Assembly: GCA_000432835.1 (NCBI GenBank)
Contig: FR890375.1
Span: 26,412-90,411 of the forward strand
DNA: 64,000 nucleotides
Source of the DNA: Clostridium sp. CAG:417
Lineage (GTDB): Bacteria; Bacillota_I; Bacilli_A; RF39; UBA660
Direction of reading: 5' to 3'
Shown here: piece after piece, positions 6,262 through 7,349 of the stretch
How positions within the stretch are numbered: position 1 is the stretch's first letter
How the letters are laid out: each line of letters begins with the position of its first letter
The notes under the pieces: model-generated
Database searches by the model: none
Seen by the model: the letters and a program-made list of their open reading frames with translations, nothing else
Told to the model about the DNA's origin: nothing
Made by a program: the position numbers and the translations under genes

Positions 6262-6945
6262 ATGTCTAAAAAAGATGTTGCTATTACAAGTGCAAAGAGT
6301 GCTATATCATTAATACCTTGGGCTGGTGGGATTATAAATGAAGTGATTTCATATTATCAAGGAAAATATGTGGATTTACGTATTGAGAAATTAGAAAAAA
6401 TTCTAGGTGATGATAGAAAAGATATATTTGAAAAAAATATGAATAATTTAAATGAGCAAGAATATTTTTTGTCTAGAAAATTAATTAAATTTTACTTGTT
6501 GGAATCTGAACCAATAGTGTCTGAAACAGTTGTAAAATTTCTTGTTGATTATATTCTTTCAAATAAAAGAGATTCAATGAATTTAATAATATCTATGCTA
6601 TGTCAAATGGAATCATCTGATATAGAATTATTAAAAAAGATAAAACATAGTTTTACAAATTTAGATGCTGAATTAAAATGGGAAGAAATTTCTCCATATG
6701 AAGTAAATAATTCAGATGATAAAATAACAAAAATTAGTTTAAATCAACTAATATCAACAGATTTTTCAGACGATGGCAATATGAATTTAGAGTTTAACAT
6801 GATGGGAATTGCATTTATGAAACTCGATAGATTAAACATAATAAATACATATTTTCCAATTTATCCAGGTAATAACAATACTAGAAATATTATTTCTTTT
6901 ACAATAACTCCATTGGGTAAAAAAATAATAGAGTATATTGATTAA
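6262..6945 (+). CDS. hypothetical cargo protein (227 aa)
   Basis: ORF with extended -10 (TGgTATAAT at 6231..6239) and RBS AAAGGA 7 nt upstream of ATG. No domain recognised. Confidence 0.5.
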   Translation: MSKKDVAITSAKSAISLIPWAGGIINEVISYYQGKYVDLRIEKLEKILGDDRKDIFEKNMNNLNEQEYFLSRKLIKFYLLESEPIVSETVVKFLVDYILSNKRDSMNLIISMLCQMESSDIELLKKIKHSFTNLDAELKWEEISPYEVNNSDDKITKISLNQLISTDFSDDGNMNLEFNMMGIAFMKLDRLNIINTYFPIYPGNNNTRNIISFTITPLGKKIIEYID

Positions 6946-7217
6946 AAATTGGTTTTTAAATATTCTTCTAATTCCGATAGTTTTATTTTATTAGATAGGT
7001 TTTCAATAAATATCTCATTAGAATAATTAAAAGCAAGAAATGTTATATCATTAATTATTATTCTATGTGGTTCAACATAGGTTAAGTTAGTTCTATCAAT
7101 TTTTCTTATACTACCATTTATGATTTTTAGAGTAGTATTTGAAAACTCACATATTAGTTCTAACTTCTTTTTTAATGATTCTTCAATAACAACTTCTTGC
7201 TTAATAATATTTACCAT
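6942..7217 (-). CDS. hypothetical small protein (about 91 aa; island-borne paralog of 81..392)
   Basis: Track ORF 6942..7382 runs into tRNA-Gly, so the N-terminal 50 aa are spurious. Internal ATG at 7226 or 7217 (MVFMVNIIK...) has an AAAGGA RBS. Homology to the 81..392 product. Confidence 0.5.
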   Translation of the reverse strand: MVNIIKQEVVIEESLKKKLELICEFSNTTLKIINGSIRKIDRTNLTYVEPHRIIINDITFLAFNYSNEIFIENLSNKIKLSELEEYLKTNF

Positions 7218-7349
7218 AAATACCATCCTTTCTTTGTAGGATAGTCTTTGTATGACTTCCAAACTTTGCGCGTTGAAGCAGGTACACAAAAAAACTAACC
7301 CAAATTGAGTTAGTTGTATTAAAAAAGCTCGAAAAGTTCGAGCGTATTT

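Follow-up and report, generated by a model that had tools for sequence, protein, structure and literature searches.

A small-protein family linked to the large serine recombinases of tRNA-integrated mobilizable elements

A 64,000-nucleotide stretch of DNA from Clostridium sp. CAG:417 (the window; positions are counted from its first letter) contains a 6.9-kb integrative mobilizable element (IME) at 498-7349, inserted at the 3' end of a tRNA-Gly gene, and this analysis concerns a 91-aa protein encoded just inside one end of that element. The window has a GC content of ~26%. The target gene, tRNA-Gly(TCC), was located by ARAGORN at 7355..7428 on the minus strand, and a promoter scan placed a perfect 12/12 promoter, TTGACA-16-TATAAT, ahead of it at 7474..7447. 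A 12-nt direct repeat, CCTTATGGAGCG (reverse complement CGCTCCATAAGG), forms the attL core at 486-497 and the attR core at 7350-7361, and the attR copy includes the final 7 nt of the tRNA. Read from attR inward, the minus-strand module consists of the right arm, one or more terminators, the gene for the 91-aa protein (6942..7217), a leader, a 612-aa large serine recombinase (LSR; 4187..6025) and a 441-aa MobV-type Mob_Pre relaxase (2670..3995; PF01076, E = 1.1e-11). The relaxase gene also comes after the LSR in most related loci. Two plus-strand genes, of 227 aa (6262..6945) and 654 aa (627..2591), are interspersed among these; the 654-aa cargo gene has no family match.

The LSR matches the Resolvase (PF00239, 1.4e-36) and Recombinase (PF07508, 9.8e-17) domains and PHROG 95, integrase (1e-114). 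Its zinc ribbon scores 2.5e-5 and 25.0 bits against Zn_ribbon_recom (PF13408), just below the 25.3 cutoff, and the match to NCBIfam XisF is sub-threshold at 134 bits against a cutoff of 375. This is the only recombinase in the element, which has no tyrosine integrase of the kind found in classical tRNA islands. The element encodes its own relaxase with no mating-pore or coupling genes; no type IV secretion system domains were detected among the open reading frames (ORFs) of 498-7349, which besides the LSR and relaxase comprise only the 654-, 227- and 91-aa genes.

Related loci and contigs, numbered L001-L219, were compared with the window. The same site is empty in L105 and L106, where an Imm33 gene, tRNA-Gly, 99 bp, a gene for a 103-aa protein identical to that encoded at 81..392 of the window, and an EamA gene follow one another and the element is absent. 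The window's element, with its 654-aa gene, is also present in L107 and L109, and L104, L108 and L110 carry three further elements at the identical insertion point. Defined ends, an att repeat and an empty site in relatives establish the IME.

The 91-aa gene is the first gene inside attR. Its ORF starts at the ATG at 7217, and an in-frame ATG at 7226 would yield 94 aa. The 91-aa, 227-aa and 103-aa proteins have the NCBI entries CDC61882.1, CDC61881.1 and CDC61877.1, named 'hypothetical protein [Clostridium sp.]' or Clostridia-bacterium metagenome-assembled-genome proteins. A profile built from the 91-aa protein (type A) and its 103-aa paralog (type B) collected a family that forms 3,987 clusters when grouped at 90% identity and 751 when grouped at 50%, and no cluster carries a Pfam domain or an informative name. 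The genome scan used alignment A2, because the initial alignment, A3, was too diverse. In a literature search of incomplete coverage, neither this protein family nor a clade of LSRs with such a range of tRNA targets was found described.

An AlphaFold2 model of the 91-aa protein (pLDDT 90.8) consists of a strand, a helix, seven strands and a helix. Alignment of 29 diverse members revealed a conserved TNLxYVEPH motif in which N44 and Y47 are invariant. Across 2,369 pairs dN/dS has a median of 0.15, and the small genes of the window and L024 differ by 1 non-synonymous and 15 synonymous changes. These results show that the small gene encodes a real protein under purifying selection. The small proteins have no match in Pfam, PHROGs, NCBIfam or PADLOC; the window protein has no Pfam match at E <= 0.1, and the 29 members have no recurrent match at E <= 5. 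The TnpV (PF14198), XisI, XisH and Xis-type Pfam models do not match it. No fold or sequence relatives were found in PDB (Foldseek and sequence profile) or in BFVD, and the sole XisI-like PDB match is noise (E 3.6, TM 0.20). Several other identities were rejected. The protein is not an LSR domain that occurs as a separate copy (hhalign probability 1.8%), and it is not a phage gene product, with just 27 IMG/VR hits, many of them near contig ends. No recurrent domain fusion occurs among longer members, which look like mis-calls, insertion sequences (IS) or fusions to neighbours. Two members, P0001 (161 aa) and P0055 (106 aa), contain internal duplications, seen as two units head to tail or a repeated TNLTYLEPHRIIINDI segment, which suggests recombination between tandem copies.

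Linkage of the small gene to the LSR was measured in 80 loci from GTDB species genomes, which contain 79 small-gene copies with at least 700 bp of downstream sequence. An LSR starts less than 400 bp downstream on the same strand in 55/79 copies, with a modal gap of 225-227 bp, and 0.7-2.2 kb downstream in a further 9 (64/79 in total). The other 15 copies have no LSR downstream, or fragments only. The distant LSRs in these loci (<=36% identity) lack a small gene. For the reciprocal measurement, an independent metagenome set was seeded with the LSR, and homologs 42-97% identical with enough upstream sequence were retained; a small-family gene lies upstream on the same strand in 64 of the 65. Since L108 and L110 have the small gene and the LSR and lack Mob_Pre, the pairing follows the LSR and not the relaxase. 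The small gene is encoded on the LSR's own element, inside the att cores, and is absent from the empty sites. These results identify the small gene as a core gene of the recombination module and a near-obligate partner of the LSR. A preliminary description of the window had placed the 91-aa and 227-aa genes together in a second cargo module; with a small gene beside 64/65 LSRs, the former is therefore a core partner, and only the 227-aa gene is cargo. The same description had tied the small protein to the integration site, and this is borne out by the co-occurrence of its homologs with LSRs and with att sites or tRNA ends.

The 227-aa gene begins behind an extended -10 element, TGgTATAAT (6231-6239), with an AAAGGA ribosome-binding site 9 nt before its ATG. 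The consensus promoter scan omitted this promoter, which has no -35 element at the proper spacing. Both signals had been described beforehand, as had the convergence of the 227-aa and 91-aa ORFs on overlapping stop codons (6942-6945) and the lack of a recognisable domain in the 227-aa protein; all were found again, the last as the absence of any match in Pfam, PHROGs, NCBIfam or PADLOC, including defence and Abi families. The 227-aa family comprises 15 clusters by single-sequence search and 22 by profile. Its AlphaFold2 model (pLDDT 70) is helical with a weakly winged-helix-like C-terminal part, and no function was assigned because all fold matches are weak (E > 0.1).

Comparison with L024 determines the status of this gene. 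The L024 element has a small protein 99% identical and an LSR 95% identical to those of the window, and it lacks the 227-aa gene; in that element the small gene and the LSR are separated by the canonical 222 bp. Similarity between the two elements stops at the stop codon of the small gene and resumes at the leader hairpin of the LSR. The same slot in L028/L029 (~10264-11230) holds a 248-aa protein that matches PADLOC candidate PDC-S32 (E 8e-76), and the occupants in other sister elements include a membrane protein of 268 aa, a group II intron reverse transcriptase, IS110 and genes that encode 215, 133 and 187 aa. The 227-aa gene is thus a swappable single-gene cargo in a hotspot that extends from the small-gene stop to the LSR leader. 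The occurrence of a PDC-S32 gene indicates that the slot therefore trades single-gene, possibly defence-related, cassettes. Homologs of the 227-aa protein neighbour AbiEi/AbiEii, DUF4238 and Fic, HD proteins, Zeta toxin and other LSRs, and from this gene context a defence or addiction role is plausible.

The convergent arrangement with overlapping stops, together with the toxin-antitoxin and Abi genes around 227-aa homologs, would also suit a functional pair, a toxin-antitoxin or defence module made up of the small gene and its 227-aa neighbour. The distribution of the two genes effectively refutes that arrangement, which is considered extremely improbable. The small gene exists in thousands of copies against 22 clusters for the 227-aa family, the nearly identical L024 element does without the 227-aa gene, and other genes hold its slot in sister elements. 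The two are not a pair because no small-family gene lies near 227-aa homologs outside the window's element in the contexts examined.

The gene at 81..392 (minus strand) encodes the 103-aa paralog. The identity of about 40% noted in the preliminary description was measured by BLASTP as 37% over 79 ungapped residues (E 8e-19), far beyond chance. Residues 1-71 of the 103-aa protein resemble the family, and after residue 71 the sequence diverges from canonical type-B proteins, which have 90 aa and end in ...GNLKKKIPLSELSEYIARH. DNA matching its tail (residues 65-103) lies in L010/L011, ~400 bp downstream of an intact 90-aa gene of the family, and the protein is therefore the product of a deletion fusion, fixed in this species. 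Within the assembly collection, 1,180 indexed blocks contain the identical 103-aa protein.

Sequence upstream of 81..392 identifies its origin. The relic element end at 425..485 (minus strand) contains the arm motif TAAAATCGTCGCACC (471-485) and an intrinsic terminator (425-452). It reads TAAG(A/G)TAAAATCGTCGCACC after the tRNA end and places TCGCAC at +14..+19, at the spacing that TCGAAC has in active elements, with the terminator behind it; the segment thus has the anatomy of an element right end. The same segment precedes type-B genes in L010, L063 and L105, and LSR fragments are still present downstream of the type-B gene in L063. An EamA gene, and no recombinase, follows the 103-aa gene in all contigs read, and for this reason 81..392 was rejected as the first gene of a complete second element in tandem. 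These results show that 81..392 began as the first gene of an older element in this family and has since decayed, and that the window's element is inserted between tRNA-Gly and this relic. The preliminary description had foreseen the uninterrupted locus correctly, with 81..392 directly after tRNA-Gly as found in L105/L106, and had offered an earlier-element remnant as one of two origins, which the relic arm and terminator, the EamA neighbour and the fused C terminus now favour. Its chromosomal tRNA terminator ahead of 81..392 does not stand, since with a relic end in this position the terminator is old element DNA. A role of the small protein in immunity is disfavoured because four different elements integrated beside the resident relic. 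Arrays of two or three small genes without recombinases occur in L044 and L089 and look like piled-up relics.

The position of the small gene behind tRNA genes is general. Of 84 small-gene copies, 57 are preceded on the same strand by the 3' end of a tRNA or tmRNA gene at a distance of 100-153 bp, and the copies without an adjacent tRNA are mostly inner members of tandem arrays. The targets across all samples comprise ~20 tRNA species and tmRNA (junctions of L024-L103 and L141-L219, compared with window 7336-7378). Two LSRs that are 97.5% identical lie at tmRNA and at tRNA-Arg(CCT), and two that are 95% identical lie at tRNA-Leu(TAG) and at tRNA-Tyr.

Junction alignments show that element sequence starts at the CCA end of the tRNA. 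The motif TCGAAC occupies +14..+19 after CCA in all type-A junctions and repeats, in inverted orientation, the T-loop GTTCGA found at -24..-19. In the window, the right arm (7293..7343, minus strand; arm hairpin and intrinsic terminator) has the hairpin GCTCGAACTTTTCGAGC at 7327-7343, which holds TCGAAC at 7336-7341 (GTTCGA on the plus strand). The attL of four different elements at the tRNA-Gly site all end in (C)GCTCCATAAG, and these left ends have motifs that are GTTCG-like, GTTTC-like or of the GTGTGC type, placed ~4 nt outward of where the tRNA has its T-loop motif. The attP half-sites of LSRs place the motif for the zinc-ribbon domain further from the centre than attB half-sites do. The spacing of the left-end motifs would fit this rule in our reading, and the centre of symmetry would then lie near -6 to -4, where the acceptor stem ends and the discriminator base follows. 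Because position +5 is G in element-bearing strains and A in empty or otherwise occupied strains, attL, attR and the empty site do not fix the crossover dinucleotide. The range of targets and the arm geometry suggest that this LSR clade recognises generic features of tRNA 3' ends, which would be unusual for serine integrases. A 140-nt junction class (L038/L041/L043/L047/L062, compared with window 7257-7292) has an extra segment of ~35 nt after the second terminator, for example TTTCGAACTCCCACAGGTCAGCTTGGAAG, which looks like a piece of a tRNA T-arm and may be the fossil of an earlier attachment inside the element end.

The range of targets bears on the role of the small protein, which could aid integration or target choice on an attB in which only the tRNA T-arm and acceptor end are conserved, or protect the function or expression of the tRNA gene after insertion. 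The occurrence of nearly identical LSRs at different RNA genes agrees with this, as does the inverted T-loop motif at a fixed distance in the right arm, which would leave only one attB half-site generic. Such a role is nevertheless judged quite improbable: target selectors have no precedent with LSRs, no nucleic-acid-binding signature was found in the protein, and a gene dependent on tRNA read-through would be silent before integration. A broader proposal combines both parts in a two-protein integration system, in which the near-universal T-arm and acceptor end of any tRNA or tmRNA gene would serve as an attB half-site and directionality would be set by a cofactor of new fold, whose promoter-less, attenuated gene would be expressed from the tRNA promoter only when the element is integrated. 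This proposal is tentative and rather unlikely. If true, it would provide a naturally 'portable' attB for genome engineering.

Expression signals were located on both sides of the small gene. The interval from the CCA end to the small gene contains, besides the arm hairpin, one or two intrinsic terminators (7293-7315 in the right arm of the window) and a short hairpin, ACTATCCT...AGGATGGT (7222..7245, minus strand), into which the Shine-Dalgarno sequence of the small gene falls. The region has 4 terminator-like sites against 0.4 expected. RNAalifold returned a 6-bp consensus for the Shine-Dalgarno hairpin, with 4 pairs showing some both-sided changes. No sigma-70-like promoter was found by consensus scan between the terminators and the start codon; in the tRNA-His class this interval is ~45 nt, and the 110-nt class hardly fits a promoter.

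The leader of the LSR (6048..6214, minus strand) has a promoter of its own, TTGACA-17-TATTAT (6214..6186, promoter scan), a 21-codon leader ORF, MHYFNYIKTNNYFRGVKSITC (6134..6069), and a terminator hairpin (6054-6094) with a T-run (6048-6053) that ends 22 nt before the LSR ATG. By eye, the hairpin is conserved with paired changes between clades across related loci (L003-L102). A leader ORF with a Shine-Dalgarno sequence that enters the 5' arm and stops inside the hairpin is present in 29 of 44 unique leaders, and the arrangement looks like translation-dependent control of terminator read-through. In most Bacilli-type elements the leader ORF has 25 codons and ends in ...EESVVFRLY.

Two readings of the small protein make use of these signals. 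The favoured one is that it is an LSR partner resembling a recombination directionality factor (RDF) and expressed by read-through from the tRNA promoter, with the 227-aa gene as cargo and 81..392 as a relic of an older element; a probability of about 0.4 is assigned to this reading taken as a whole. The most economical role is that of an RDF-like cofactor: the 91-aa protein would bind the LSR and permit attL x attR excision, acting by protein-protein contact to control directionality. Most transcripts of the small gene would start at the strong tRNA promoter of the host and read through into the gene, because no sigma-70-type promoter was found, the tRNA has the same orientation and the gene lies right behind it. 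The element terminator(s) and the hairpin over the Shine-Dalgarno sequence would damp this read-through. The small protein would be made only in the integrated state, and an excised or newly transferred circle would be without it, leaving the LSR alone to integrate.

The main rival places the small protein in the control of LSR expression and not in catalysis, in one version through repression or RNA binding at the promoter or leader of the LSR. Read-through from the tRNA would keep LSR levels low in the integrated state, and absence of the protein from a new circle would release a burst of LSR. The positional logic is identical to that of the RDF model. The LSR promoter, the conserved terminator hairpin 22 nt before the ATG and the frequent leader ORF indicate that regulated read-through exists, and many family members are mildly basic (median pI 8.8). 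However, the small protein has no helix-turn-helix, ribbon-helix-helix or known RNA-binding fold and no structural match whatsoever. Charge is not conserved, ranging from -7 to +7 across the family, the window protein has a pI of 5.8, and charge and pI were dropped as indicators of DNA binding because they are too variable. A terminator controlled by a leader peptide can operate without a protein factor, and the small gene is linked also to LSRs whose leaders lack an ORF. Regulation of LSR expression is accordingly regarded as an unlikely role, clearly less so than target choice.

Evidence on the RDF-like reading itself is mixed. Distances among small proteins track those of the zinc-ribbon/coiled-coil and C-terminal parts of the LSR (Spearman 0.77 and 0.75) more closely than those of the catalytic domain (0.48), but the low divergence of the catalytic domain confounds this mirror-tree signal. 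Several further points weigh against the RDF-like role. Identities are not strictly coupled, as the L041 small protein is 80% identical and its LSR 44%. The Shine-Dalgarno hairpin is weak at -4.1 kcal/mol, the promoter scan was restricted to the sigma-70 consensus, and the variable charge of the family leaves room for nucleic-acid binding. TnpX of Tn4451 needs no RDF (PMC5704250). Shin et al. link a C-terminal extension of the LSR to LSRs without a predictable RDF (PMC12286644), and the LSR of the window has a C-terminal extension of ~130 residues.

The tRNA-Gly site is a hotspot. Four elements of one family with unrelated cargo occupy it across strains (L104, L108, L110 and L107), some in tandem with further elements. 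The cargo of L104 comprises MutH, Dcm methylase, DUF6414 and AAA genes, and that of L110 and L107 comprises TnpV, NikA and MFS genes. Upstream of tRNA-Gly, the minus-strand gene at 7496-7834 encodes an Imm33 immunity-domain protein (PF09951, E 1.7e-35) and is followed by a gene for a multi-pass membrane protein of 377 aa whose internal layout is repeat-like; the neighbourhood shows no evident toxin gene. Megablast searches of phages and plasmids returned matches limited to the tRNA and a 90-nt relic segment. One comparison record, L001, is GenBank MT838028.1, an unannotated 5.8-kb 'Bacteriophage sp.' sequence from human faeces. Its positions 5547-5639, near the end of the record, match window 406-496 at 92.5%, a region that covers the relic arm, terminator and tRNA-end fragment. 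The record has no match to the element proteins, and it could represent either a further element or a mis-binned fragment from the border of a like site.

The family consists of thousands of unannotated proteins of ~90 aa that are almost inseparable from one LSR clade, and this clade is widespread in human and animal gut Firmicutes. Elements of this family carry restriction-modification, Abi, CBASS-nuclease-like and candidate defence genes. If the small protein controls excision or expression, it would account for the way in which such small and very common elements pass from the integrated to the mobile state and back. The recombinases seem to accept many tRNA and tmRNA genes, a property attractive for genome insertion in a broad range of hosts. 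For annotation, the results allow core genes to be told from cargo and make tRNA-proximal 'hypothetical' 90-aa genes markers of present or past elements.

Known systems share individual features with this module. In the fdxN element of Anabaena, the large serine recombinase XisF requires small accessory proteins, XisH and XisI, that are encoded beside it. The window likewise has an LSR with a small protein encoded alongside, but that protein matches neither the XisH nor the XisI family. Genomic islands at tRNA and tmRNA genes classically use tyrosine integrases. The window's element resembles such islands of the Islander/TIGER type in its insertion at the 3' end, restoration of the gene end by the element and tandem accretion; it differs in that its family uses a serine recombinase and places close relatives at ~20 tRNA species. 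IMEs with serine recombinases usually disrupt protein-coding genes (PMC5704250).

The RDFs of LSRs, such as SPbeta SprB, phiC31 gp3, Bxb1 gp47 and TP901-1 Orf7, are like the small protein in being small, element-encoded and tied to one LSR lineage. Most known RDFs are phage genes without synteny to the integrase, whereas the small gene has a fixed place directly upstream of the LSR in a non-phage element and is known from sequence alone. LSR RDFs have no common fold or synteny, are defined by activity and bind DBD2/coiled-coil regions (PMC12286644). Because activity alone defines them, sequence cannot decide membership of the small protein in this class. No RDF is known for serine-recombinase IMEs (PMC5704250), and the small protein, if it acts as proposed, would be the first RDF-type factor for such an element.

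The closest likeness is to the Tn4451/Tn4453-type IMEs of Clostridia (TnpX and TnpZ), which, like the window's element, are ~6-7 kb long with one LSR and one MobV/Mob_Pre relaxase, and have no transfer apparatus and few cargo genes (PMC5704250). Tn4451 has low target specificity, a 2-bp core and no need of an RDF (PMC5704250), whereas the window's family inserts precisely at tRNA or tmRNA 3' ends with an 11-12-bp shared core and has a small gene upstream of the LSR. The TnpV family is distinct from the small protein, and the two coexist in L110. The IME itself is of the Tn4451 kind, and its small gene represents a large unannotated family of LSR partner proteins.

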